Counted from the stretch's first letter, positions 25,839 to 37,712 are shown. The stretch is 37,712 nucleotides of DNA from Candidatus Bathyarchaeota archaeon (GCA_030589055.1 JAUUWK010000001.1:1-37712); one strand, 5' to 3'. The notes: generated from the sequence alone by a model not told the origin. A program made the numbers and translations.

Positions 25839-26215
25839 CTATTTTACATAAGACTCATTTATGCAAACTCTTGCTCCTTCAGTGTTTAGGCTTGCTTCTA
25901 GCCACGTCGGTAAAAGCAAGTTAGGCGTGGAATGACCGAAATCCATACCTGCGATAATTGGAAACTCAAATTTGTCGGTTATATCCAAAACGACTTTTTC
26001 AACCTCGCTGGTCATATCTTTTATAGCATTAGCTTCCTCGCCTCTAATGTTACCGATCAACATGCCCTCCGTTTTGTCAAATAAGCCATTTTCTCTGAAA
26101 TGAACCAACAGTTGGTCAATCTCTTCCAATGGGTGCCTTGAGGTAGCCTTTTTAAGAAAATAATATCCTTATCCAACTTTGGAAAATACGGTGTCGCAAG
26201 CAAAGAGCGAGCGCT
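25839..26215 (-). pseudogene. C-terminal fragment of an LD-carboxypeptidase (MccF-like). It is 5'-truncated and frameshifted at an A-run
   Basis: 'SLLATPYFPKLDKDIIFL' is in one frame. 'EEIDQLLVHFRENGLFDKTEGMLIGN...GMDFGHSTPNLLLP' is in another. The N-terminal nucleophile domain is missing. Confidence 0.7.
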
Positions 26216-26459
26216 CTTGAAACTGTTTTTTGAGACAGCAGACATGCTTTTGCTGGACCAAGATTTTTTTGTGCAAAAGGGCTATGGATGGATGCTGAAG
26301 GAAGCAGGCGATCGATATTCAGTAGAGGTCTTTCGCTATGTAATGAAAGACAAGGAAGAAATGCCAAGAGTAGCATTAAGATACGCAATTGAGAAGCTGT
26401 CACCGGAATTAAAGAAAAAAGCTATGGCAAAAGAATCTTGGAGGGGAAGCACACGTTAG
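26205..26459 (+). pseudogene. C-terminal fragment of a DNA alkylation repair (AlkD-like HEAT repeat) protein
   Basis: 'DQDFFVQKGYGWMLKEAGDRYSVEVFRYVM' resembles the AlkD-family C-terminus. Only about 80 codons remain, and they begin at the palindrome at 26204-26217. Confidence 0.55.
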
Positions 26460-26585
26460 AAAAATCAGTGGGTAGCTTTCTGATAATAACAGTGAAAGTT
26501 TTCTGTTTGAGATTTCTCAAAGGGCTTCGATGAACTCTATCTTAGCGTGTTCATTTTGCTCGAAATCTTTAGCTTTTCAGTAGTT

Positions 26586-27662
26586 CTATTGTGTAACAGA
26601 GTGATACCAACTGATTATATACTCTGGTAGCTTCAGTCCCTTTTCAGCCAATCTTTCAGCTAATTTGACTGGCAAAGGGCTTAGAACGTATGCTGCTCTC
26701 ATGTAGAACCTTCTAGGTTGGCCTGGCTTGACTTCTTCTTCTAGCGTTATATGAAAGTCTGCCTTCTCGGCTAAAGTTGACTTCTTCGTTCCCGTGATTG
26801 CTAAGACAGTTCCGTTCAGCTTTTTGAAGACGTCACGCCAGATGATAACAGGTTTAGTTTCTCCCGAAAATGACACCAAAATCTCTAGATCTCCGGCTCT
26901 CGGATGCGGAGTGTTCACGCCTCTGGCTATATAGACGTTGTCTCCCAACAAATTTTTGATGTGAAAAAGTCTTACACCAGCCATTTTGACAATTTCGTTT
27001 GCTGTGCCCTTCCCACCTAGAAACACGCTAGTCCGTCTTTCCAGTATATCAACGATGTGAGCGTAGGTTTCTGACTCCACGCTCAAGTCAATTATGGGTC
27101 CCAGCTTAGTAAACTCTTCCTCACAGAGTTGAAACACTCCATCTGCCTCAAGATTCCGGAAGATTGCTTCAGTCATCATACACAAAAGAAGCAGGCTCTC
27201 CAGCTCAAAGATGTCACCCATGATGCCTGTCTCGCTGTATTCGAAGGAAGGCTTTAGTCTTCCTCGTCCTTTCAGCCTAACTACATGACCATGTTCTTGG
27301 ACTATCTTTGCTAGCGGAGAGTTTACGTTAGAGGTTAGGAGTCCCATAGAAAACTTTGAAGTTTTTTTGTCTTCGACATACCGTGCCAAATCTTGTGCCA
27401 TCGCTAGAGGATCATCAGAGAAGCCACTACCCGAGTTTATAAGGAGCAGAGTCTTTTTGTATCGTCTTTCCAGCTCGGTTGCTGCATCGTACATGTTCTT
27501 CCCGGGAAAGCCGGGGTCGTCCGGGGTCAACACAACCTTGTTTCTCCAACCTATCTGGCTCACAGCGATTTGACTCATCGCAGCGTTCAAAGAGAACAAT
27601 GACCTGCCTGATCCTCCGCAGACTACACAGTTTGCTGACTTCAGGTCTTCGTACAATGGCAA
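26586..27662 (-). CDS. Tandem SIS-domain sugar-phosphate isomerase-like protein
   Basis: 'VVCGGSGRSLF...LLLINSGSG' and a second 'FLGGKGTANEI...LVSFSGET' segment. Confidence 0.65.
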   Translation of the reverse strand: MPLYEDLKSANCVVCGGSGRSLFSLNAAMSQIAVSQIGWRNKVVLTPDDPGFPGKNMYDAATELERRYKKTLLLINSGSGFSDDPLAMAQDLARYVEDKKTSKFSMGLLTSNVNSPLAKIVQEHGHVVRLKGRGRLKPSFEYSETGIMGDIFELESLLLLCMMTEAIFRNLEADGVFQLCEEEFTKLGPIIDLSVESETYAHIVDILERRTSVFLGGKGTANEIVKMAGVRLFHIKNLLGDNVYIARGVNTPHPRAGDLEILVSFSGETKPVIIWRDVFKKLNGTVLAITGTKKSTLAEKADFHITLEEEVKPGQPRRFYMRAAYVLSPLPVKLAERLAEKGLKLPEYIISWYHSVTQ

Positions 27663-27810
27663 CAGTTTCCTTCTTTTTATGTTGAAAAGGTTATCTCTAA
27701 TCCTGTTAATGTACCCTACACGACTGATCTTGCTCCTAATTTCACTTACACCTCATTTAAGGATGAAGGTTAACCATTCTATATTTGCTTTGCGCGTGGA
27801 TTTTTCGGAG

Positions 27811-27824
27811 ACTCGCGCGCTTAC
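27811..27824 (-). repeat. (CG)n motif copy S5, ACTCGCGCGCTTAC (weaker copy)
   Basis: Its reverse complement GTAAGCGCGCGAGT resembles the reverse complements of S1 and S3. It is intergenic. Confidence 0.5.
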
Positions 27825-28009
27825 ATTAGCTTCCGATTTTTCAAGTTATCTGTCACACATTACCTTTTCTCAATTGGGGTTCGCTTTTAAACCTTATGAC
27901 TCTCACAGCGCACAGAAGTCATCCTGATTCTGATGTGGAATCCGAGTCTGAATCCACGATTCATAACCTATAGATAAGTAGCGCAACAAAGGGTCACTAC
28001 AAGATTTGT

Positions 28010-28630
28010 TTGGTGTTTCTGATGTCACTGAAGCTGAAGAAAATCATGGTAAAGAATGTCGTAACTGTGAACGCCAATGTTACTGTAAAGAAGGCGACTG
28101 AGATTATGAACAAACATGAAATTGGCTGTCTGGTTGTTGTTAGCGGTGGGAAACCTATAGGCATCGTGACTGAGAGAGACATGCTAAAAAGAATTATACA
28201 TGAGTTGAGGGAACCTGAAAAGACGAAGGTTATTGATATAATGTCAAAACCTTTGATTACAGCAGCGTCTAAAATGCGTGCAGGGGACGCTGCTAAACTT
28301 ATGTTTGAGCAAAAGATAAAGAAACTTCCAGTGGTTGAAAATGGAAGACTCGTTGGTTTGGTTACTTTAACGGATCTCATTCGTTCTCAAGAGGTGCTTA
28401 GTTTTCTAAACGGTTTCTCTACGAATGATGCACCCAGGCGCATGAAGAAGGTGGTCAACTTGTATTTTGACAGTGCAAAGCGCCATAGACGGAGATGTCC
28501 ACTCATAATGAAAGATGGCTTTTCAATGGGTTGTCAAGAAAAAAAGTGCATGTGGTGGCTTGGAGACGAATGCGCGATCACTAAGCTTTCTCGCCAAGTG
28601 CCCAACATGACAAGTGCGGTTCAAACATAA
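28010..28630 (+). CDS. CBS-pair protein with a Cys-rich C-terminal tail (the start may be internal)
   Basis: Two CBS modules ('IMVKNVVTV...IGCLVVV..GKPIGIVTERD' and 'IMSKPLITA...IKKLPVVENGRLVGLVTLTD') followed by 'RRCP...GC...KCMWWLGDEC'. Confidence 0.8.
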   Translation: MVFLMSLKLKKIMVKNVVTVNANVTVKKATEIMNKHEIGCLVVVSGGKPIGIVTERDMLKRIIHELREPEKTKVIDIMSKPLITAASKMRAGDAAKLMFEQKIKKLPVVENGRLVGLVTLTDLIRSQEVLSFLNGFSTNDAPRRMKKVVNLYFDSAKRHRRRCPLIMKDGFSMGCQEKKCMWWLGDECAITKLSRQVPNMTSAVQT

Positions 28631-28847
28631 TTTTCTCTTACTAAATGGTGTAGCTACATTGAACTCTGCAAAGAAATGAGGCAAAAGGAGAATAGCCTGC
28701 AGCAATCGCCTGCTTTGAAAATAGTACAGAATTGAAGTAAGTATTCTAAATCTAGAAGACGAGTAATCTATTCTGATTTTTCATAAGCTATAAATAGTGA
28801 AAAGGCTAAATCTACTTTTGCCGATTAGGGTTTAGGATGTTGATAAA

Positions 28848-29066
28848 ATGGTGAGTGAAGGTAGAGGGCGTTTGTTTCGTAGAAAGGATGGCAAGTACTT
28901 GATTTATTTGCCAGAGTACTTGGCTGAAGATAGCATGTTCCCGTTCAAAGATTTTGGCAGAGGCAGGAGAGGTGCAAGCGGTTCCATAGACGTAAAAGTG
29001 AGTTTCAAACCTGGCGGAGACGACAAGCTACTTATAGAAAAGTGGAAAGCACCAGAAAACCAGTAA
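28848..29066 (+). CDS. Small AbrB/SpoVT-like protein (tentative)
   Basis: 'GKYLIYLPEYLAEDSMFPF...IDVKVSF..GGDDKLLIEKW' resembles a swapped-hairpin barrel pattern. Confidence 0.35.
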   Translation: MVSEGRGRLFRRKDGKYLIYLPEYLAEDSMFPFKDFGRGRRGASGSIDVKVSFKPGGDDKLLIEKWKAPENQ

Positions 29067-29464
29067 AGTCGAATCATTGTTAACCAAATAACGGGCGCAT
29101 GAAACACGTCTAGAAGGCTGAATTCTACTGTATGTTTCCTTCGGCATATTTGCTATTCTTTAAAATGCAGTTAACCAATATGCATTGGGTTCCTGTATTC
29201 TCGATTTTGTTCCCGCTAACGTTGTATTCTTGAAAAGATACGGTTCAGTAAAGTGGTTGCTGGTAAAGTGAATCTATCGAAGCAGTTTCTTTCAGGATCT
29301 AGATATGTGGAATGAGCAGGTACAAGTCGTGGCACATTATGGTGGTGAATAGGCAAAGAGAAGCAGTCAAAATTAGGGGCGAAATCTAGTGCTTAACTAT
29401 AGCACACGTGTAGGGGTGGAAAGTATTAAGAGGTTGAGAGTAAGATAACGCACTCGGGTATACT

Positions 29465-30040
29465 ATGAAACTTCACGTTTCCATATTCAGGCATGGCGAA
29501 ACCTATTATAATAAGAGTAAGAGATTTACCGGGTGGATCAATTCAGGGTTGACACCTAGAGGAATCAGCCACGTCAAAGCAATAGCCGAGAAATTAAGAA
29601 AGAAGACTTTTCAAATAGCATTCAAAACAAGCCTTTCTCGTTCATCGGATACGCTGAAAATAGTTCTAAAGTATCATCCCGAATGCAAGAGAGTTGTCGT
29701 TGATGATAGAATGATAGAAAGATCTTATGGGGATCTTCAGAGGAGATTTCACAAAACTGTAATTAAACAATACGGTAAAAGGCAGTTCCACATTTGGCAC
29801 AGATCCTATGATGTCCCTCCTCCTGGAGGTGAATCAATCAGAATGGTCGAGAAAAGAGTTCTATCCTTTATAGATGATTTAATCATCCTTATGAAAAAGG
29901 AAAGAGTCAATGTTGCAGTATCTGCTCATGGAAATTCGATGAGACCGTTTAGAAGGTATTTTGAAAATCTAACCATAAAAGAAATGATGAAACTAGAAAA
30001 TCCCTACGACAAATATTTTGAATATGTTGTTGGATTCTAA
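29465..30040 (+). CDS. Histidine phosphatase (phosphoglycerate mutase superfamily)
   Basis: An 'RHGETYYN' catalytic RHG motif, 'ERSYGDL' and 'VSAHGNSMR'. Confidence 0.8.
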   Translation: MKLHVSIFRHGETYYNKSKRFTGWINSGLTPRGISHVKAIAEKLRKKTFQIAFKTSLSRSSDTLKIVLKYHPECKRVVVDDRMIERSYGDLQRRFHKTVIKQYGKRQFHIWHRSYDVPPPGGESIRMVEKRVLSFIDDLIILMKKERVNVAVSAHGNSMRPFRRYFENLTIKEMMKLENPYDKYFEYVVGF

Positions 30041-30099
30041 TTTCCACTGCACGCGTTTTACGCCAAATATTAATAGTTCACGGAGTACGATAAAATGTT

Positions 30100-30627
30100 A
30101 TGGTAGAATACGAATACTTCTGCATCTATGGATTTCGTACAGTTTATCCCGTTACTTGGAAAGTAGAGCTTGATCCAAAGTCGGAACGAAGTGAAGGGAA
30201 CGTTACCATCAAATCTCCTGAAAAAGCGAATATTGTTGTAAGTTGGGGACTACTTGAAAAGGCAAAGAAAAGGTATTCCTTCCTGAAAGAACATGCTAAG
30301 GACTCTATTAACAGAATAAAAAAGGAGTCAAAGATTAAAAAAGTTGAGTTAGTTCAGACTAAGGATATTCAAGTAAACTCACACAAAGCTATATTCTCTC
30401 ACATTAGAATAATCTTCTCCATGCCCAAACTATTGCCTTTTGGAAAGGCAAAAACATACGAGCAGGAAGTCTATAGTTTGCACTTCTATTGCGAACCTTC
30501 TAAGCGATACTTCGTGGTATATGGCGTAACAACATCTGATAAATCTGTACAACAAGGGCGCATCTTCAAGAATATTATACAATCTTTCATTTGCCATAAG
30601 GCGAAGGCGAGTCCTACTAATAAATAA
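30100..30627 (+). CDS. Hypothetical protein
   Basis: A 175-aa ORF with no recognisable motifs. Confidence 0.35.
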   Translation: MVEYEYFCIYGFRTVYPVTWKVELDPKSERSEGNVTIKSPEKANIVVSWGLLEKAKKRYSFLKEHAKDSINRIKKESKIKKVELVQTKDIQVNSHKAIFSHIRIIFSMPKLLPFGKAKTYEQEVYSLHFYCEPSKRYFVVYGVTTSDKSVQQGRIFKNIIQSFICHKAKASPTNK

Positions 30628-30727
30628 CGACATGTTGCGTTCGCACACTTGTTTGTCTCACAGTCTTCTGGATAAGTGTAGATATTGATTTTCATTTTTT
30701 ATTTCTAATGCATAAGGTTTTTCTGAG

Positions 30728-30747
30728 ATGTTGGAAGCGCGCGCGCC
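30728..30747 (+). repeat. (CG)n motif copy S6, ATGTTGGAAGCGCGCGCGCC
   Basis: Matches S4 at 18 of 19 nt. It lies 10 nt upstream of an orphan membrane-anchor fragment. Confidence 0.8.
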
Positions 30748-30756
30748 ATAACAAAC

Positions 30757-31014
30757 ATGACTCGAGTATACTACCTCTTCTTAATATCCTATCCAAACTA
30801 CAGCGGCTACAGAATAGAACATGACCCATTGTACACTGTCTACTTTGCCCCAACCACTGAAGCTGGACCTAACCTCGGCGACCTTGTATTGATCGCGGCA
30901 ATAGCAAGCATAATAATCGTAGCGGCGGTTGTCATTCTACGGAGAAAAAACACAAAGAAAACATCTCAAACACTAACAAATCAATCCTTACCGCCACCAC
31001 CCTCAACAACCTAG
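30757..31014 (+). pseudogene. Orphan C-terminal fragment of a membrane-anchored extracellular protein
   Basis: 'YRIEHDPLYTVYFAPTTEAGPNLGDLVLIAAIASIIIVAAVVILRRKNTKK' is a terminal strand, a TM anchor and a basic tail. There is no signal peptide or ectodomain. The frame is open back through motif S6. Confidence 0.5.
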
Positions 31015-31205
31015 CATCCATTTTTTGCCAAGCATCGACAAGCCTGTACGCACTTCGATGGTTCCTTGGCACTTGTCTATTACCTAGGTTTAAACTTTAG
31101 ATGTTGTTTTGGCATAATCGAGCTTTTGTGGAACGCAATGTTTCCTCTATAATTGGTTTTTTGCCTTGGATGGTAACTGTAAGGTTCGGCTTGGTAACTG
31201 GAAAA

Positions 31206-31889
31206 TTATAGAATTAGCGGGTATATCTCCTTTGTCACGTATTCCAGATACTTTTCTTTGTCTGTCAAATCGAATATTGTTACTGAGGTGTCTCTTGTAA
31301 CACCGACTACGTAGCCGTATTCCTTGGATCTCGCAACAACATACCACAAGTCACCGTGCTTACAATAGTCCTCGAAAACTGAAGTGTTTATCAAGTCTGG
31401 TCCATAAAGCGAAAGCTTATTCACATTGGGAATATCGACATTGTCGAAAAACGTGATTTTCGTATCCTGTCGATTCTTCAAGTGGAATTCCATTAAAGTT
31501 TCAGGTGAGATTCTAGCTTCCAGTATGTCGCCCACTTTTTCGAAGAGAATTTTGCTCAGTTTGTTTGCCATGAAATTAGCTAAACGTTTCTTCTCTACTA
31601 TAGTCAAAAACGTTGCACCATCATGTTCAGCGAAGCTGAAGAGAGCTTCAACAGTTCGTGGCAATGGCATAACTTTGCCTCTGTGAAAAACGTTAATTAT
31701 GTGATCATGAGAATAGACTCCCCTAAGCATGTTGTCCTTTGCTAGAAGACCCACAACCTCCGTTACAAGAGTATACTTGTAATCACCTTCCTCATAAGGC
31801 TCTTCAACGAGATGTCCTTCAAGCCTCGACCCAGTTTCAGCCAGCGAAAGCGATTCAACAAGCCTAAAGACCTTTCCAGCAACAACCAT
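31206..31889 (-). CDS. Hypothetical protein (227 aa)
   Basis: A long ORF with normal composition and no recognisable family. It lies downstream of 31923..32384 on the same strand. Confidence 0.5.
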   Translation of the reverse strand: MVVAGKVFRLVESLSLAETGSRLEGHLVEEPYEEGDYKYTLVTEVVGLLAKDNMLRGVYSHDHIINVFHRGKVMPLPRTVEALFSFAEHDGATFLTIVEKKRLANFMANKLSKILFEKVGDILEARISPETLMEFHLKNRQDTKITFFDNVDIPNVNKLSLYGPDLINTSVFEDYCKHGDLWYVVARSKEYGYVVGVTRDTSVTIFDLTDKEKYLEYVTKEIYPLIL

Positions 31890-31922: not shown

Positions 31923-32384
31923 TCACTTAAGAAATTTAAGTTTCATTTTCTTCTCAGCCGTTTTCCCGTTCATCCCCTCTGTGTCTCTGTTCATTTTCAA
32001 CCATAGAGAATCATCTTTCCACAATGTAAACTCGTCTTTTCTAGCTCTTTCATGAGCTTCATCTCTTTCAAATCCTTTAGCTCGGTAATATGGTTCTTTG
32101 AGTTCATGGAAAATTACGTACTTCGTGTAGGGCTTCCACTTTTCACAAATCCAAATTTCCCTAAGAGGAATGCACAGTTCACTTGCGGCGTTAGTCGTAA
32201 TCAACTCGTTTTCGCATACGATGTTGTAAGTTGCATTGTAATCGTCTGAAACTCCGTGCGGAGCATAAATAATTTTGCAGAGATATTCACTCGGCAACTT
32301 TTCTGTTTCTTCATGTAGATTCTCTACAGATTTCATGCAACTCCTATCCTTAAATGGAAATGTGCAGCAACGCTTTTTAAACAT
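31923..32384 (-). CDS. Hypothetical protein (153 aa, or about 137 aa from the second Met)
   Basis: The N-terminus is Cys-rich. 'YVIFHELKEPYYRAKGFERDEAHERA' is present but is not a canonical HExxH. It is divergent from the SMC-like operon. Confidence 0.45.
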   Translation of the reverse strand: MFKKRCCTFPFKDRSCMKSVENLHEETEKLPSEYLCKIIYAPHGVSDDYNATYNIVCENELITTNAASELCIPLREIWICEKWKPYTKYVIFHELKEPYYRAKGFERDEAHERARKDEFTLWKDDSLWLKMNRDTEGMNGKTAEKKMKLKFLK

Positions 32385-32454
32385 GAACTCAGCCTAATTG
32401 TTTTAATAAGAGACTTTTGACTCTATTACTACGCTAAAAGAGGTTGCTTCTCCA

Positions 32455-34419
32455 ATGCTGATTCAAGAGGTAATCCTGGAAAACTTTATGAGTTACGAAT
32501 ATGCTAGGGTACCCTTCAAATCAGGCGTAAACGTTATCTGTGGACCCAACGGTTCGGGGAAATCTTCACTTTTATTAGCTATTTCTGTGGCATTGGGGCA
32601 GTCTTACACTGAGCGATCTAGAAAGTTGAGCGATCTGATACGGTGGGGAAGAGATCAAGCCCGTGTGACGCTGGTTCTAGACAACACTAAGATTGGTAAA
32701 CGTAGACCTGTTCCCAAATTTAAGAAAGACCAAATTTTCCTTACACGTGCTCTGCGGAAGGATGGCAAATACTGGTTTGCGCTTGAAAACAGGGCAGCCA
32801 CAAAAGCTGAAGTTGAAAGGCTTCTAGCTAGGCTCGGCGTCGACCCTGATAACATGCTTATTATTATGCATCAGAACATGGTTGAACAGTTTACCGTGCT
32901 TTCTCCACAGGAAAAGTTGCGAATGGTTGAGGCTGCCGTTGGGCTTGAATCCTATCGCCAAAACGTGCTGAAGGCACGGAAGAAGCTGACACGCATATCA
33001 AGTCAAGAGAGTTCAATAAGTGAGCTTCTGGAATCAGCCGAACAGACGCTTAACTACTGGAGGGAACAGTATGACCGGTACCAAGAGAAAAAGCAACTAC
33101 TGACTAAACGGAGATTCTTGGAAAGGGAACTCGCTTGGGCAGGAGCGACAAGAAGAGAAAACATAGTTAAAGAATTAGAAGCAAACACGAAAAAACAACA
33201 GAATGTTCTAAATCAGATTGAAGACGAAACCAAAGAGATAGTAGGTCAACTTCAAATTCAGCAAAACCAGCTCGAAAAGATAAAGGATGAATGGAAAAAG
33301 CTTTTTGACGACCGTCTAAGCCTTGAACGTGAAAAAGCCAAAGGCGATTCGACAATCTCCCTGTGCGAACAGCTGCTGAAAGAAACGGCAATACTAGAGA
33401 ATGCTATTCGAAGCGGAAATCCTTCTCCCTTAGTAAGTCAAAGCTTTGAGAAAACTGTTTCAAATCGTTTTAAGCTCCTACGAAGTGAAAACCTGAAGGA
33501 GATAATACAGAACTTTGATCAGCAACTTTCAAAACTGAACACCAAAATAACGGAAAACAAAAAGGGAATGGAAAGCCTAGAAGAGAACGTTGAAAAGGTT
33601 AGCACTCACGCTTTGGACAGCAGAATTAAGTTAGCGTTGCTTCAGTACCGTGAAGAAAACGTAGAAGCTGAACTTGAAAGATTGAAAAGGGAACTGAGAG
33701 AGGCAAAAACCTACTTGGATGAAGCACTAAGAAAAGCGGAGCAGATAGGACTCCGAATCGCCGTGATAAAAAGTGTTAGTGAGATTCTTGACGAGATTAG
33801 AGTTACAGACGGGCATTTAGCTGCCCTTTCTGATGTTTCCGAAGATATAGAACGAATGTATGAATCTTATTCGAAGCTTTACTTAGAGCTGAAGGAGAAG
33901 GCAAGACTTGTTGCTGAAAACCGTGAAAAGACACTGGAAGAAATCAAAGCGAGAATGCAGGCTTGGCGAACAGTGATCCAAAGCCTCCTAGACCGCGTGA
34001 ACCTACAATATCAAAAGATTCTCACGCAAGCCCAAGCCCTTGGAGAGGTCAGACTTGTCAATGGACAAGATATAGAGGCTGCTGGACTTGGAATTCTCGT
34101 AGGTTTCAAGGGCAGCAAACCAGTTCCACTTAATGGTTACACGCAAAGCGGTGGAGAAAGAACAACAGCAACCATAAGCTTTCTGCTGGCTTTGCAGCAA
34201 CATGTTCGTTCACCTTTCCGCGCTGTTGACGAATACGATATCCACATGGACCCGAAAAACCGTGAAATAATCGCAAAGATGCTCGTTTCAACAGTTAAAG
34301 ACGCAAACGCTCAATACATTGTTCTTACGCCCAGCCAGATAACATTCACAAAAGAAGAAGTAAACATAATCACAGTGCAAAACATCGAAGGAAAATCAAT
34401 AATCAGAGGGATTGCCTAA
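32455..34419 (+). CDS. Short SMC-family ABC ATPase with Smc5/6-like head motifs and no hinge
   Basis: The N-terminus reads 'LENFMSYEYARVPFKSGVNVICGPNGSGKSSLLLAISVALGQ' (Walker A). About 330 aa of heptad-rich sequence are interrupted by 'SGNPSPLVSQSF'. The C-terminal head reads 'QSGGERTTATISFLLALQQHVRSPFRAVDEYDIHMDPKNREII' (signature motif, Walker B and D-loop). Confidence 0.85.
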   Translation: MLIQEVILENFMSYEYARVPFKSGVNVICGPNGSGKSSLLLAISVALGQSYTERSRKLSDLIRWGRDQARVTLVLDNTKIGKRRPVPKFKKDQIFLTRALRKDGKYWFALENRAATKAEVERLLARLGVDPDNMLIIMHQNMVEQFTVLSPQEKLRMVEAAVGLESYRQNVLKARKKLTRISSQESSISELLESAEQTLNYWREQYDRYQEKKQLLTKRRFLERELAWAGATRRENIVKELEANTKKQQNVLNQIEDETKEIVGQLQIQQNQLEKIKDEWKKLFDDRLSLEREKAKGDSTISLCEQLLKETAILENAIRSGNPSPLVSQSFEKTVSNRFKLLRSENLKEIIQNFDQQLSKLNTKITENKKGMESLEENVEKVSTHALDSRIKLALLQYREENVEAELERLKRELREAKTYLDEALRKAEQIGLRIAVIKSVSEILDEIRVTDGHLAALSDVSEDIERMYESYSKLYLELKEKARLVAENREKTLEEIKARMQAWRTVIQSLLDRVNLQYQKILTQAQALGEVRLVNGQDIEAAGLGILVGFKGSKPVPLNGYTQSGGERTTATISFLLALQQHVRSPFRAVDEYDIHMDPKNREIIAKMLVSTVKDANAQYIVLTPSQITFTKEEVNIITVQNIEGKSIIRGIA

Positions 34420-35246
34420 TGCAGTCTAAAAGAACTCGGATAAAACTTGGCAGGCAAAAACTTGAAAGAATAATCGAGACGTGCAAATCTGTAGAGGAAC
34501 GTTCCCTCGACCCATTCCTGTTAGATGTTGACGAAGTCATAAGTGTAATCAAAGAGTATTTTCCAGAATGGGAACTGCCAGAAGACTTGTGCTTAGATGC
34601 TGAAACTATCCATCACATAGCTTCTGTCATAAAGCTTCAAAGCGAGTGGGTTAAACATCGTTCCACATCACTTTATACAGATCCATTTCTTTTTGAGGAG
34701 AAACTTACGCGAATAAGCAAAGAAGAGATTGTTGAGATTTTCCTGAAGGCTTGGCATCCAACGGTTGAATTAGAACAGATTTCGCTTCACAGTTTAGCGG
34801 AGGCAATCAAGTATTGGAAAAGCTTGTTGCCGTTAAATGCAAGGTGGAAAGAATTTTTCCCTGAGAAAATTGAAGCCGGTCTTGCAACAAGAGAAGAGCT
34901 GATAAAGCAGAGAGTCTTAGGAGAGAAAGCGTTCTCAGAGGAACTTGAGGACTCTTGGCTGAAATTAAAGAGGAAGGTTGAAGAGAGGGGTGAAGACGGC
35001 AAAATTCGATACTGGGATTTCATTGGTGCAGAAACTTATGAGGAAACCGTGCATAAAGCCTTCATGATAAGTTTCTTGGTCACATATGGCTATGCAACTT
35101 TGGAAATTTATCCATTGGAGGAGGAGATTTTCATTAAACCATACGAAGAGCTATTGACCAAAATCGGAGAAAAACAGTTGGTTTCAATACCTATAGCTAT
35201 CACAGCAGAAGACTGGATGAAATGGAAACGAGGCGAGCTACAGTGA
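34419..35246 (+). CDS. Kleisin-like protein (ScpA/Nse4-like)
   Basis: An N-terminal helical segment 'SLDPFLLDVDEVISVIKEYF'. A C-terminal winged-helix-like 'YEETVHKAFMISFLVTYGYATLEIYPLEEEIFIKP' resembles the kleisin cap-binding WHD. Its ATG overlaps the SMC stop (TAATG). Confidence 0.6.
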   Translation: MQSKRTRIKLGRQKLERIIETCKSVEERSLDPFLLDVDEVISVIKEYFPEWELPEDLCLDAETIHHIASVIKLQSEWVKHRSTSLYTDPFLFEEKLTRISKEEIVEIFLKAWHPTVELEQISLHSLAEAIKYWKSLLPLNARWKEFFPEKIEAGLATREELIKQRVLGEKAFSEELEDSWLKLKRKVEERGEDGKIRYWDFIGAETYEETVHKAFMISFLVTYGYATLEIYPLEEEIFIKPYEELLTKIGEKQLVSIPIAITAEDWMKWKRGELQ

Positions 35247-35803
35247 GCAGAAGGAAAGCCTACTACACGAACAAAATTAAGAGGGCGGTTCATCTGCTCT
35301 TCTACCGAAGACACAGAAAGCCCGGAGTAAAGGGATGGGAGCTCCGGAAAGCCTTAGGCTCAGATTACCCAAAAGTCCTGAAAATTCTAGACAAACATCT
35401 AAAACCCCTCGATTTACAGGTGAAAACAGTTTTTGAGGGAGAGAAACCAGTTGGAAAACCAACTTTAGACCAGTTGAACAAGGCCAGGTTCTGCATAACA
35501 TTAAGAGGGGAATTAACACCCAAAGAAGCCAAGATGATAGGGTGGCGAATAGACGACCTCGCAGGACTAGCAATAACAATCGCCTACATAATATCCAGAA
35601 AAGGAAGAGCACCGCGAAAAGAAGTTGAAGAGCTGTTGCGCGACAAACTGCCCGAATGGAAGGTTGGAATGAACGTCGATCGGTACATTCGTTACGGATA
35701 TTTAACACAGGATGAAAATGAACAAGTATACTTGGATTGGAGAACCAATACTGAGGTTGATCAGAAAGCCCTCGTAGACCTTGTTTTGAGCGCTGAAACC
35801 TAA
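35222..35803 (+). CDS. Tandem winged-helix KITE-like protein (ScpB/Nse3-MAGE-like). An alternative GTG start lies at 35243
   Basis: WH-A reads 'AVHLLFYRRHRKPGVKGWELRKALGSDYPKVLKILDKHLKPLDLQVKTV...ARFCITL'. WH-B reads 'LAGLAITIAYIISRKGRAPRKEVEELLRDKLP...YIRYGYL'. It overlaps the kleisin gene. Confidence 0.55.
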   Translation: METRRATVSRRKAYYTNKIKRAVHLLFYRRHRKPGVKGWELRKALGSDYPKVLKILDKHLKPLDLQVKTVFEGEKPVGKPTLDQLNKARFCITLRGELTPKEAKMIGWRIDDLAGLAITIAYIISRKGRAPRKEVEELLRDKLPEWKVGMNVDRYIRYGYLTQDENEQVYLDWRTNTEVDQKALVDLVLSAET

Positions 35804-35809
35804 CGCAGT

Positions 35810-35983
35810 CTATCTTTTTATTTTATGATAGATTAATGCGATGATGTCGACAGTAATTATTGCTACGAGAACGATCAGCGGGTTGCTTAGAAACTTGTCA
35901 ACAAGAGGTTCTTCTTCCGCACTGACAGAATTGATTAACGCAAATAAAAGAAATAGAATATGCAAAATTTCGAGTTTCTTCAT
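35810..35983 (-). CDS. Possible 57-aa secreted or membrane peptide downstream of nusA
   Basis: Translated by hand: MKKLEILHILFLLFALINSVSAEEEPLVDKFLSNPLIVLVAIITVDIIALIYHKIKR. This reads as a signal-like segment plus a TM segment. It is below the ORF-track size cut-off. Confidence 0.3.
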   Translation of the reverse strand: MKKLEILHILFLLFALINSVSAEEEPLVDKFLSNPLIVLVAIITVDIIALIYHKIKR

Positions 35984-36003
35984 GTTCTTGGTCTCTTGAA
36001 GGT

Positions 36004-36441: not shown

Positions 36442-36773
36442 TCAGTTCCTCCGTAGGACTCCTCTGGTTCCGTCTTTTCTATTAACCTAAAGATTTCTGA
36501 ATCCCCGGGCTCTTTTATACTTAACGCTGAAATGACAAAGGGTTTACCGCATACAGCGGCTAAGTCTATGGATGAGCTCTTGTATATAATTAGTGGAACA
36601 TCTGAAAGCTTACAATAATACTCTATGTCTTCATGTGTGCCTTTCGGGCAGTTCGCAGCCAAAATTATCAGTTTGGTTTTTCCATTTTTTGCGTTCTGTA
36701 TGGTGGAGTTCGCGCCAAAAAAAACTTTCCCTGTTTTGACAACAGTTGTAATCGCTTTTTCTACGTCTATCAC
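36438..36773 (-). CDS. rpl30e: Ribosomal protein L30e (eL30)
   Basis: 'KTGKVFFGANSTIQNAKNGKTKLIILAANCP' is the L7Ae/L30e-fold signature. It lies between rpoA'' and nusA. Confidence 0.9.
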   Translation of the reverse strand: MIDVEKAITTVVKTGKVFFGANSTIQNAKNGKTKLIILAANCPKGTHEDIEYYCKLSDVPLIIYKSSSIDLAAVCGKPFVISALSIKEPGDSEIFRLIEKTEPEESYGGTE

Positions 36774-37712
36774 TTGCCCTGCCTCTTCAACTTGGATGTC
36801 GACATGTATAGTTCAACTAGTCCTGTACCAATTGGTATGGATTGCCCTATTATTACGTTTTCGGTTACACCATCCAATGGGTCGCTTTCACCCCTCACGG
36901 AAGCATCAACAATATTTGGGACTGTTATTTCGAATGCGGCTCTGGCTAAAACACTTGATTTCTTACCGCTTATTCCATGTCTACCTATCTGTTGCACGTC
37001 ACCCGTGGATGTCATCGTATCCGCAACAAGCATTACATGACGGACGTCAACGTCTAAACCTTGTTCCTCCAAAACGCTTTTAGCCTCATATATTAAAGCG
37101 TTCCTAGCGGCTTCTATTCCCAACATCTTAGCTATTTCATGAACGTTATTTGTTGTCGTTCGTGAAGCCTCTACTTCGGAAATTTCTAACACTTTAGGGA
37201 GGTTTGACCCGTCTGTTCTTATGACCCATTCTCCACGTTCTTCTGTGACCAACACACGCTTTGTTTTGGGTACACCTTTGATGTGGAAAGAGGAAACCTT
37301 GGGAAGTAATTTTTTGAGGTTTTCAGCCTTTTCAGGTTTTATGTACACGCGGTTACTTCTTGTTCTTACAGTGCAGTTTGGTATCTCTAACAGATTCTTC
37401 AATTCTTCAAGTGTTATTCTTCTATCCTCCATCATTCTTTTGCTAAGTTCCACTGTTATTTCTTCTTTTATGGGATCTTCATAAATTGCTTGTGCCAAGT
37501 CTTCTATCGTCGTATGGATTATTTTGCGGGCAATCTCTGTTGCGGCTTCCTTGTTTTTTCTGTATTTTTTGGTCAAGTATATTGTCATTATAGGAGTGGA
37601 TGGAACTCGTCTCGCATCAACAATTTCTATGAGTCTTGGCAGTCCTAGGGTTACGTTCTGCTCTCGAACTCCTGCATAATGGAACGTTCTGAGAGTCATC
37701 TGTGTGCCTGGT
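36770..37712 (-). CDS. rpoA2: DNA-directed RNA polymerase subunit A'' (5' end outside the window)
   Basis: 'MTLRTFHYAGV...NVTLGLPRLIEIVDA', 'GIEAARNALI' and 'DVRHVMLVADTMT..G' are all present. The frame is open to the window edge. Confidence 0.93.
   Translation of the reverse strand, partial: PGTQMTLRTFHYAGVREQNVTLGLPRLIEIVDARRVPSTPIMTIYLTKKYRKNKEAATEIARKIIHTTIEDLAQAIYEDPIKEEITVELSKRMMEDRRITLEELKNLLEIPNCTVRTRSNRVYIKPEKAENLKKLLPKVSSFHIKGVPKTKRVLVTEERGEWVIRTDGSNLPKVLEISEVEASRTTTNNVHEIAKMLGIEAARNALIYEAKSVLEEQGLDVDVRHVMLVADTMTSTGDVQQIGRHGISGKKSSVLARAAFEITVPNIVDASVRGESDPLDGVTENVIIGQSIPIGTGLVELYMSTSKLKRQGK

Follow-up and report, generated by a model that had tools for sequence, protein, structure and literature searches.

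An SMC5/6-related ATPase with short, hingeless arms encoded with a kleisin and a kite in a Bathyarchaeota operon

Archaeal SMC5/6-related operons and the Bathyarchaeota cassette

A clade of archaeal SMC proteins related to SMC5/6 was first shown by Yoshinaga & Inagaki in 2021 (PMC8665677), and operons combining an SMC5/6-related SMC with an Nse4-related kleisin and an Nse1/3-related kite have been described in TACK and Asgard archaea by van Hooff, Raas, Tromer & Eme (bioRxiv 10.1101/2024.01.07.573240; 2024/25). Bathyarchaeota E29_bin60 serves as an example cluster in the latter work, with the same gene order as the cassette analysed here, and many Bathyarchaeia rows of its table place the Nse4-related and Nse1/3-related genes side by side. 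Phylogeny and synteny are the subject of both studies, and neither hinge loss nor arm length comes up in their results or supplements.

The window analysed here is the whole of a 37,712-nt stretch of DNA from a Candidatus Bathyarchaeota archaeon (GCA_030589055.1 JAUUWK010000001.1:1-37712). Its cassette, at 32455-35803, consists of three overlapping ORFs on the + strand which encode proteins of 654 aa (32455-34419), 275 aa (34419-35246) and 186 or 193 aa (35222-35803 in the longer form). The ORFs had been read as translationally coupled, and the junctions bear this out. At the first (gccTAATGcag) the ATG of gene 2 and the TAA of gene 1 (34417-34419) have one base in common, while at the second (acaGTGAgc) gene 2, which ends with a TGA at 35244-35246, shares 4 nt with a gene 3 that starts from the GTG at 35243, an alternative ATG at 35222 giving an overlap of 25 nt. 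The GTG start of gene 3 is favoured because most of its homologues have 186 aa and gene callers on contigs with 99% identity also choose the 186-aa form. A putative archaeal promoter and ribosome-binding region, picked out by eye, lies upstream of the ATG of gene 1 at 32401..32444 (+), where TTTTAATAA (32401-32409) resembles a TATA box and GAGGT (32440-32444) a Shine-Dalgarno motif. The T-rich tract TTTTTATTTT at 35815..35824 (+), 12 nt past the gene 3 stop, is a possible archaeal terminator. The three ORFs form one operon, whose products are an ABC ATPase of Smc5/6 type, a kleisin of Nse4 type and a kite of Nse3/MAGE type. A survey of the neighbourhood found the same order of SMC, kleisin and kite on one strand at L001-L006, L085, L087, L088, L091 and L092. 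Among these loci, L005 belongs to Thermofilales and L006 to 'Thaumarchaeota' UBA160.

The marks of the archaeal SMC5/6-related complex, namely the grouping of the ATPase heads, the Nse4-related kleisin, the Nse1/3-related kite and the operon order, were all found at this locus. Set beside the published operons (PMC8665677; 10.1101/2024.01.07.573240), the cassette showed nothing different in kind, sharing with those of the second study the three families, the gene order, the strand and the host class. We regard it, with a probability of about 80%, as the form that the archaeal 'second' SMC complex, a relative of eukaryotic Smc5/6, takes in Bathyarchaeia. The novelty implied by the earlier note is lost, since the same kind of operon is already in print, including a Bathyarchaeota example with the same order, and our identification of the gene families repeats published work. 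The only unusual feature of the cassette is an ATPase with short arms and no hinge.

The ATPase, the kleisin and the kite

Gene 1 (32455..34419, +) was recognised through Pfam, phmmer and a family profile as an SMC5/6-related SMC ATPase of 654 aa, short-armed and hingeless. It matched Pfam SMC_N at 5e-37, and in a phmmer search of the PDB its best match was yeast Smc5 (5e-32), human Smc6 scoring 3.6e-24. The Smc5/6-type head motifs quoted in the earlier note are present and were paired by phmmer with those of yeast Smc5 (PFRAVDEYDIHMDPKNR with PFRVVDEINQGMDSRNE; QYIVLTPSQIT with QYFLITPKLLT). When the family profile A5 was run against the PDB, all ten of the best matches were Smc5 or Smc6 (251-279 bits), P. 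furiosus SMC scoring 237 bits and Rad50 68 bits. In a search of 1.84 billion representatives, the archaeal relatives were followed by proteins of about 1050-1140 aa, and the one such protein whose genomic context was examined lies on a contig that carries MDM10 and Swc3, both eukaryotic genes. In a neighbour-joining tree built from the head domains, without bootstrap, the gene 1 clade stood apart from canonical SMCs; published phylogenies cover SMC5/6-related archaeal SMCs (PMC8665677, PMC9389158). Both the profile search and the head-domain phylogeny had been proposed as checks, and both agree with the placement. These comparisons support the assignment of gene 1 as Smc5/6-like, and not as a canonical SMC, Rad50 or ASRP.

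As read from the sequence, the ATPase motifs of gene 1 are intact. Walker A, GPNGSGKS (aa 30-37; 32542..32565, +), is invariant in alignments A3 and A5, and the ABC signature SGGER (aa 565-569) and the Walker B/D-loop FRAVDEYDIHMD (aa 588-599), together at 34147..34251 (+), align to the Smc5 motifs, with S565-E568, D592, E593 and D599 invariant in A5.

Gene 2 (34419..35246, +) was identified through Pfam and profile A7 as an Nse4-related kleisin of 275 aa. Nse4_C was the top Pfam family in 30 of 30 homologues, with a best E of 7.3e-5 that lies under the gathering score, and profile A7, run against all PDB sequences, gave yeast Nse4 as its best match (7ymd_A, E=5.4e-6), with human EID3 (9lwi_D) at 0.012. 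The earlier claim of a kleisin with a C-terminal winged-helix domain holds for that domain, the Nse4-matching region at about aa 131-240 (nt 34809-35138). Over the N-terminal, neck-binding domain, where a kleisin-like helix had been claimed, profile A7 matched no known kleisin in the PDB. Taken together, these matches support an Nse4-type kleisin.

Gene 3 (35243..35803, +; 186 aa from the GTG, or 193 aa from the ATG at 35222) was assigned as an Nse3/MAGE-like kite with profile A9 and hhalign. The best three matches of profile A9 among 177,635 PDB sequences were NSMCE3 (9lwi_E, 0.013), MAGE-G1 (5hvq_D, 0.018) and a MAGE-domain protein (7dg2_C, 0.17), as had been suspected of this gene, and hhalign aligned it with MAGE-A3/A4 in the same register (P=0.0088). 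Orthologues of gene 3, tied to it by HMM at 3e-11 to 4e-15, matched Pfam MAGE (0.055) and SMC_Nse1 (0.1) weakly. The AlphaFold2 model of gene 3 has a pLDDT of 43. An Nse3/MAGE-type kite is supported at a borderline level (E=0.013-0.17; hhalign P=0.009).

The head signature, the Nse4-type C-terminal winged helix and the Nse3/MAGE-type kite are common to the cassette and to eukaryotic Smc5/6 (Smc5, Smc6, Nse4, Nse1, Nse3, Nse2, Nse5/6; e.g. PDB 7QCD, 7TVE, 9LWI). However, while the eukaryotic complex has Smc5 plus Smc6 and Nse1 plus Nse3, the cassette has one SMC gene, whose product is presumably a homodimer, and a single kite gene. Neither a RING domain nor Nse2 or Nse5/6 was found in the operon or the neighbouring ORFs scanned, so that the hinge-joined Smc5/Smc6 heterodimer, the Nse1 RING, the Nse2 SUMO ligase and Nse5/6 that mark the eukaryotic complex are missing from the locus. 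With canonical Smc-ScpAB the cassette shares the SMC-kleisin-kite logic and the three-gene operon. Canonical SMCs, in contrast, have about 1170-1200 aa, and gene 1, with 654 aa and no SMC_hinge domain, scored 178 bits against SMC_prok_A, TIGR02169 (cut-off 729), and 140 bits against TIGR02168 (cut-off 567). Genes 2 and 3 matched none of the ScpA/ScpB models of Pfam and NCBIfam. On these scores, and on the missing hinge, canonical Smc-ScpAB was rejected as an identity for the cassette.

A short arm without hinge or hook

The earlier note had described short arms with neither a hinge nor a Zn hook, and this description stands. Pfam SMC_hinge gave no match to gene 1 at E<=1, and gene 1 contains no CxxC, its only cysteines being at positions 29 and 304. 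The AlphaFold2 model (m85b9b130a047) shows an antiparallel coiled-coil arm at aa 165-529 (32947..34041, +), in which a single ascending helix (165-320), with block means of pLDDT near 83-93 along most of its length, is followed by descending helices at 344-431, 441-457 and 464-529. For the arm as a whole the block means lie at about 80-93 along most of the stretch, and the heads are of low confidence. No globular domain appears at the arm tip of the model; the helix breaks at G321-N-P-S324 (33415..33426, +), a turn in the place of a hinge or hook, and then the return helix begins. P323 and P325 are the only prolines between aa 152 and 555, which places the proline-containing apex of the earlier note at this tip.

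The distal arm comprises about 156 residues, or roughly 23 nm, without a hinge, whereas that of eukaryotic Smc5/6 has roughly 350 and is hinge-joined. Gene 1 is not a truncation, since its homologues are similarly short: the 120 best-matching clusters span 641-680 aa, with one partial sequence excepted, and about 55 remoter 50%-identity clusters span 530-690 aa. The short arm without hinge or hook is real, and members of this clade normally have it. Conservation is strong in the heads and in the coiled coil next to them, gives way to variability further out (aa 231-430), and is lowest of the whole protein at the tip. Across the clade the tip defied alignment, and arm lengths differ by ~100 residues. 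It is to the heads and the adjoining coiled coil that kleisins bind in known SMC complexes.

We found no description of a hingeless, hookless arm in an archaeal SMC5/6-related SMC in the literature searched. 'Hinge-less' SMCs of marine Actinobacteria (Environ Microbiome 2025, PMC12153180) resemble gene 1 in having a head and coiled coil and no hinge or CxxC. They are, however, bacterial, fall within canonical SMC and have no relation to Smc5/6, and the part of that report consulted names no kleisin or kite partner for them. Among the relatives of the cassette, L087, L091 and L092 retain a hinge-like middle domain. Hook-bearing relatives exist as well, and the one locus of theirs that was examined, L086, has neither kleisin nor kite.

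Genomic setting and proposed role

The cassette had been placed in an accessory-looking region at a synteny break, a view that the genomic context does not support. It is flanked on one side by a conserved gene of 227/228 aa and on the other by the NusA-KH/L30e/RpoA/RpoB genes, and the same site is occupied in L002-L004, whose SMC is 99% identical, and in the 430-kb contig L001, whose SMC is 77% identical. In these four related contigs its position beside the RNA-polymerase operon is constant. The genes around the cassette are housekeeping genes, and its GC content of 0.41-0.42 does not depart from that of the window elsewhere. Identity stays at 76% or more for each of the three proteins throughout the 120 homologue clusters that match it best.

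Such strong conservation and stable placement would suit a cassette that is the main or only chromosome-organising SMC complex of its lineage, one that has replaced Smc-ScpAB in the condensin role and is not a specialised second complex. We consider this unlikely, however, as most Bathyarchaeia also have an ScpB-like kite (Supplementary Table 3 of 10.1101/2024.01.07.573240) and Bathyarchaeota E29_bin60 carries both operons (10.1101/2024.01.07.573240). In addition, a hingeless arm of ~23 nm would be hard to square with loop extrusion by segment capture.

The earlier note suggested, among other possibilities, a defence or anti-plasmid role, in which the cassette, as a Wadjet/Lamassu-type SMC system, would sense and restrict plasmids or viruses. 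Eukaryotic Smc5/6 does restrict extrachromosomal DNA (PMC10586767), the short arms of gene 1 look like those of LmuB, and gene 1 matched the PADLOC models mad3 (7e-29), LmuB (4e-23, nearly full length) and JetC (4e-11, partial), although these matches fall on shared SMC/ABC-ATPase regions. Genes 2 and 3, on the other hand, matched no PADLOC model, which leaves the cassette without JetA, JetB, JetD, LmuA or LmuC, and the best relatives of the three proteins are Smc5/6, Nse4 and Nse3, not JetABC. A scan of the neighbouring ORFs found no adjacent nuclease or effector gene, which agrees with the earlier remark that the operon has no nuclease partner. The constant place by the RNA-polymerase operon in the four contigs and the lack of a GC anomaly also speak against defence, and the level of identity across the clusters is what a core gene would show and not a fast-evolving, patchy island. 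A defence role is therefore very improbable.

The ASRPs (ClsN/coalescin, Sph1/2) and Rad50 are also archaeal SMC-superfamily ATPases with a coiled coil and a length near that of gene 1, but they dimerise through a Zn hook and work without kleisin or kite. That gene 1 is a repair or coalescin protein of the Rad50/SbcC or ASRP/ClsN type, with genes 2 and 3 as unrelated neighbours, can be dismissed as scarcely credible and was rejected: its length is close to that of ASRPs and it does match the best NCBIfam Rad50 model (2e-23) and the ASRP model NF045487 (6.6e-17), but with 82 bits where 700 are required and 61 where 300 are, the latter also disposing of the ClsN-like organiser suggested earlier, while its family profile favours Smc5/6 by 251-279 bits to 68 for Rad50, it has no CxxC hook, no Mre11 gene was found near the cassette, and its translation is coupled to that of genes 2 and 3, which match Nse4 and Nse3.

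For an archaeal SMC5/6-related complex, a mode of action can be proposed by analogy with known SMC-kleisin-kite complexes. Two SMC subunits would engage their heads on ATP, a single kleisin would link one subunit, at its neck, to the other, at its cap, and a kite dimer would be placed on the kleisin. As in Smc5/6 bound to DNA, the engaged heads would clamp the DNA and the kleisin compartment would keep hold of it, and the complex would help to maintain the genome, in repair, replication or the organisation of the chromosome, and would not act in defence. More speculatively, the two arms are probably not joined at their tips, because the tip has no conserved dimerisation module, and the complex would then act as a head/kleisin clamp and not as a large hinge-closed ring. 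We tentatively propose, at somewhat less than even odds, that this clade lost the SMC hinge with no hook or conserved tip module taking its place, and that, if the arms are unjoined, the result is a natural minimal SMC5/6-type machine in which the engaged heads, the kleisin and the kite alone hold the DNA and a hinge-closed SMC compartment is lacking.

Eukaryotic Smc5/6 is believed to descend from the archaeal SMC5/6-related complex, and to our knowledge no such archaeal complex has yet been studied biochemically. The Bathyarchaeia cassette is compact (654 + 275 + 186 aa, with single SMC and kite genes), highly conserved and abundant in metagenomes, and for these reasons lends itself well, as a minimal model, to structural and mechanistic work. 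If the proposal is true, a head/kleisin clamp would suffice for the ancestral Smc5/6-like function, and the hingeless clade, the hinged cassettes and the hook-bearing relatives would represent three alternative solutions within one family. The hingeless arm bears directly on SMC motors more widely, in separating functions that need a hinge-closed compartment from those that need only a head/kleisin clamp.

Organisation and conservation of the operon

The cassette consists of three forward-strand ORFs, gene 1 (32455-34419, 654 aa), gene 2 (34419-35246, 275 aa) and gene 3 (35222-35803), the last encoding 193 aa when read from the ATG at 35222 and 186 aa from the GTG at 35243. At the first junction (gccTAATGcag) stop and start overlap by one base, and at the second (acaGTGAgc) gene 2's TGA stop shares bases with the GTG at 35243; a start at ATG 35222 would instead give a 25-nt overlap. 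The GTG start is favoured because most gene 3 homologues are 186 aa long and the same form is called on near-identical contigs. These ORFs and their overlapping junctions agreed with the coupled three-gene operon described in the earlier note. A TATA-like TTTTAATAA and a GAGGT 5' of gene 1, and a T-rich tract 3' of gene 3, may serve as its expression signals.

All three proteins have named homologues from Bathyarchaeota/Bathyarchaeia. Each was matched by thousands of 90%-identity clusters, and in the best 120 of these thousands identity to the window protein was at least 76% in each case. Gene 1 homologues in its best 120 clusters were 641-680 aa long, one partial sequence excepted, and the short gene 1 is therefore not a truncated or fragmented SMC gene. 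A scan of contigs for the Walker A pattern also pulled in canonical bacterial SMCs, and among the matches listed only two loci, L005 and L006, held true relatives.

Family assignment for SMC, kleisin and kite proteins

Gene 1 matched SMC_N in Pfam (5e-37) and scored far under every cut-off of the NCBIfam models for canonical SMC, Rad50, ASRP, RecN and arcadin-4. A phmmer search of PDB placed yeast Smc5 first (5e-32), above P. furiosus SMC, human Smc5 and Smc6, and its alignment to yeast Smc5 (PFRAVDEYDIHMDPKNR against PFRVVDEINQGMDSRNE; QYIVLTPSQIT against QYFLITPKLLT) reproduced the Smc5/6 head motifs that had previously been read by eye. When a gene 1 family profile built from 32 diverse members was searched against PDB, all ten best matches were Smc5 or Smc6 (251-279 bits), with P. 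furiosus SMC at 237, Smc2 at 224 and Rad50 at 68. A scan of 1.84 billion representative proteins gave, after the archaeal relatives, proteins of ~1050-1140 aa; the one such contig examined carried the eukaryotic genes MDM10 and Swc3 as neighbours. The head columns were also used for a rough neighbour-joining tree, calculated without bootstrap, in which canonical SMCs, the eukaryote-type group and an archaeal clade with gene 1 were separate. The Smc5/6-like nature claimed for gene 1 thus held, with Smc5/6 in the top PDB places and the Rad50, RecN and ASRP models under cut-off. Membership tests likewise led us to reject Rad50, ASRP, Wadjet and Lamassu for the cassette.

As a single sequence, gene 2 gave a sub-threshold Pfam match to Nse4_C (E=0.004), and Nse4_C was the top family in 30 of the 30 homologues scanned (best E 7.3e-5). 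No PADLOC model matched gene 2, and a profile of close Bathyarchaeia homologues alone found nothing meaningful in PDB. Matches to Nse4 and Nse3 structures surfaced only once orthologues from distant cassettes had joined the profiles. For gene 2 these came from L005, L006, L085, L087, L088 and L089, and the best match of the resulting profile among all PDB sequences was yeast Nse4 (7ymd_A, E=5.4e-6), with human EID3, from a human Smc5/6 entry, at 0.012. The aligned region was limited to the C-terminal winged helix, in keeping with the kleisin carrying such a domain that had been predicted, and the gene 2 orthologues of L091, L088 and L085 also matched Nse4_C. On these profile comparisons, gene 2 is assigned as an Nse4-type kleisin.

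The case for gene 3 is borderline. No match was found in Pfam, NCBIfam or PADLOC, neither a profile of close Bathyarchaeia homologues nor a first widened profile retrieved anything relevant from PDB, and an AlphaFold2 model based on 30 close homologues had a mean pLDDT of 43. The third genes of the L091 and L092 cassettes are homologous to gene 3, with E-values from the widened profile of 4e-15 and 3e-11 when the database size was set nominally to one million sequences. With these two added, the three best of 177,635 PDB sequences were human NSMCE3 (0.013), MAGE-G1 (0.018) and a MAGE-domain protein (0.17), the alignment taking in winged helix A and reaching into the beginning of winged helix B. 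An hhalign comparison of the gene 3 family with MAGE-A3/A4, whose sequences were verified, gave P=0.0088 in the same register, and orthologues weakly matched MAGE (0.055) and SMC_Nse1 (0.1) in Pfam. Every figure is borderline and all point to one family, which suggests that gene 3 is the Nse3(MAGE)-like kite proposed in the earlier note. An Nse1/3-related kite is also the family reported for the gene in this position (bioRxiv 10.1101/2024.01.07.573240).

Such operons have been described before. Yoshinaga & Inagaki listed 80 archaeal 'SMC5/6-related' SMCs, 66 of them in the TACK superphylum, with a Bathyarchaeota sequence included in the SMC5/6-affiliated clade (PMC8665677). Van Hooff et al. 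reported, in many TACK and Asgard archaea, a second operon of SMC5/6-related SMC, Nse4-related kleisin and Nse1/3-related kite, with kleisin and kite adjacent in 31 of 31 cases examined; Bathyarchaeota E29_bin60 serves as an example with both this and the canonical operon, and a ScpB-like kite is also listed in most Bathyarchaeia table rows (bioRxiv 10.1101/2024.01.07.573240). In view of these published operons the identification made from the sequence was right, but the kind of cassette is already known.

The short arm and relatives with other tips

Pfam detected no SMC_hinge domain in gene 1, C29 and C304 are its only cysteines, leaving it without a CxxC, and P323 and P325 are the only prolines within aa 152-555. 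AlphaFold2 modelled the arms confidently and the heads poorly, with one helix at aa 165-320, a break at G321-N-P-S324, return helices at 344-431, 441-457 and 464-529, and no globular domain. From the coiled-coil rise per residue, the 156-residue ascending helix was computed to span ~23 nm. These observations concur with the short arms lacking hinge and Zn hook that had been noted. Residues 1-230 and 431-654, which make up the heads and head-proximal coiled coil, were very highly conserved; the distal arm was the least conserved part, and the most variable stretch was the tip (aa 311-340). Some 55 clusters defined at 50% identity were similarly short (530-690 aa, with 430-565 residues from Walker A to the signature motif), and thus a short, hingeless and hookless arm is the norm for this clade. 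Their tips differ in length and could not be aligned, and no conserved dimerisation module was evident there.

Other relatives carry different tips. In three of them, P0419, P0445 and P0458 (982, 928 and 835 aa), the middle of the protein is globular and rich in Gly/Pro, and that of P0458 matched Pfam SMC_hinge at 4.6e-11; downstream of each of these SMC genes lie kleisin-like and kite-like genes (L087, L091, L092). The rough tree puts the hinge-bearing forms close to the base of the archaeal clade, so that loss of the hinge within this clade would be the simplest reading of the sequences. Three further relatives, P0373, P0379 and P0385 (1016-1047 aa, 35-44% identity to gene 1), have long arms with QI(K/R)C(D/E)(K/R)CGS, a CxxC resembling the Zn hook of Rad50/ASRP, exactly mid-protein, and nest among short forms in a rough tree. 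No kleisin or kite lay downstream of the hook-bearing SMC at the one locus seen (L086, 2105-5248). A fusion origin for the ~1000-aa relatives was ruled out, as their arms are long.

Two SMC5/6-like cassettes occur in the single genome GCA_037917675.1. One (L089:5001-8356) codes for a short SMC of 628 aa and a kleisin-like protein of 241 aa, with a KaiC/RecA-like ATPase (PF06745, 268 aa) where a kite would stand; in the other (L091:5001-9438) the SMC is of the hinge type (928 aa), the kleisin (384 aa) has an additional MarR-type winged helix at its N-terminus, and the kite is 173 aa long. On the 3.58-Mb chromosome CP147778.1 (L092:3625-8632), kleisin and kite genes accompany an 835-aa SMC5/6-like gene with Pfam SMC_hinge; the gene 5' of this SMC gene codes for an AAA+ ATPase of 459 aa and overlaps the SMC start with its end, and RING and ThiF genes are close by.

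Neither PMC8665677 nor bioRxiv 10.1101/2024.01.07.573240 discusses hinge loss or arm length, and when the literature was searched for archaeal SMC5/6-like proteins that are short or lack a hinge, the sole 'hinge-less SMC' report to emerge was a bacterial one, on marine Actinobacteria (PMC12153180). The short hingeless arm is real and apparently not yet described.

Genomic setting and possible function

In three contigs with an SMC 99% identical to gene 1 (L002-L004), the cassette lies between opposite-strand 228-aa and 153-aa genes and a NusA-KH/L30e/RpoA/RpoB block. In L001, a 430-kb contig with a 77% identical SMC, the 228-aa gene is again upstream, and that block follows the cassette after two extra genes. 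A methylmalonyl-CoA mutase/MeaB block further upstream is common to L001 and the window, and the 6 kb from it to the cassette is unlike between the two. The 'synteny break' of the earlier note had this differing 6 kb as its sole basis, the placement of the cassette being kept. An accessory or defence island did not stand either, there being no defence-model matches for genes 2 and 3, no nuclease gene adjoining the cassette and unremarkable GC content. Given also the shared placement in L001-L004 and the housekeeping neighbours, the locus is stable in these relatives and not an island.

The variable stretch (window 26000-31100; L001:5100-9100), with the methylmalonyl-CoA mutase/MeaB/CobA block on one side and the cassette on the other, is flanked by conserved synteny; it holds SIS, CBS and histidine-phosphatase genes with small ORFs in the window, and Zn-ribbon and Band_7 genes with hypothetical ORFs in L001. 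Divergent from the cassette are two minus-strand genes without a Pfam match, 31206-31889 (227 aa) and 31923-32384 (153 aa). All four contigs L001-L004 retain the 227/228-aa gene there, L002-L004 also the 153-aa gene, and both are absent beside the cassettes of more distant lineages. A 57-aa opposite-strand ORF (L002:7485-7658, minus strand) is called in the kite to NusA-KH interval in the 99%-identical contigs, corresponding to 35806-36003 in the window. RpoA in related contigs is called as a single 1273-aa gene with Rpb1 domains 1-5, rather than A' and A'' (L001:16140-19961); the window ends inside its RpoA gene (36770-37699, minus strand). No tRNA genes or Rfam families were found in the window.

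The reading of the cassette as an Smc5/6-type SMC-kleisin-kite operon, and not a defence island, is thus well supported. Gene 1 combines intact ATPase motifs and a conserved head and neck region with its short hingeless arm. By analogy with established SMC biology, ATP would drive the heads of an SMC homodimer to engage, a single kleisin would bridge neck and cap with a kite dimer seated on it, and DNA would be clamped at the heads inside the kleisin compartment, in what may be a genome-maintenance role. It could be speculated that the arm tips are unjoined, giving a head/kleisin clamp and not a hinge-closed ring. The short hingeless arm gives the cassette some interest as a minimal model system.
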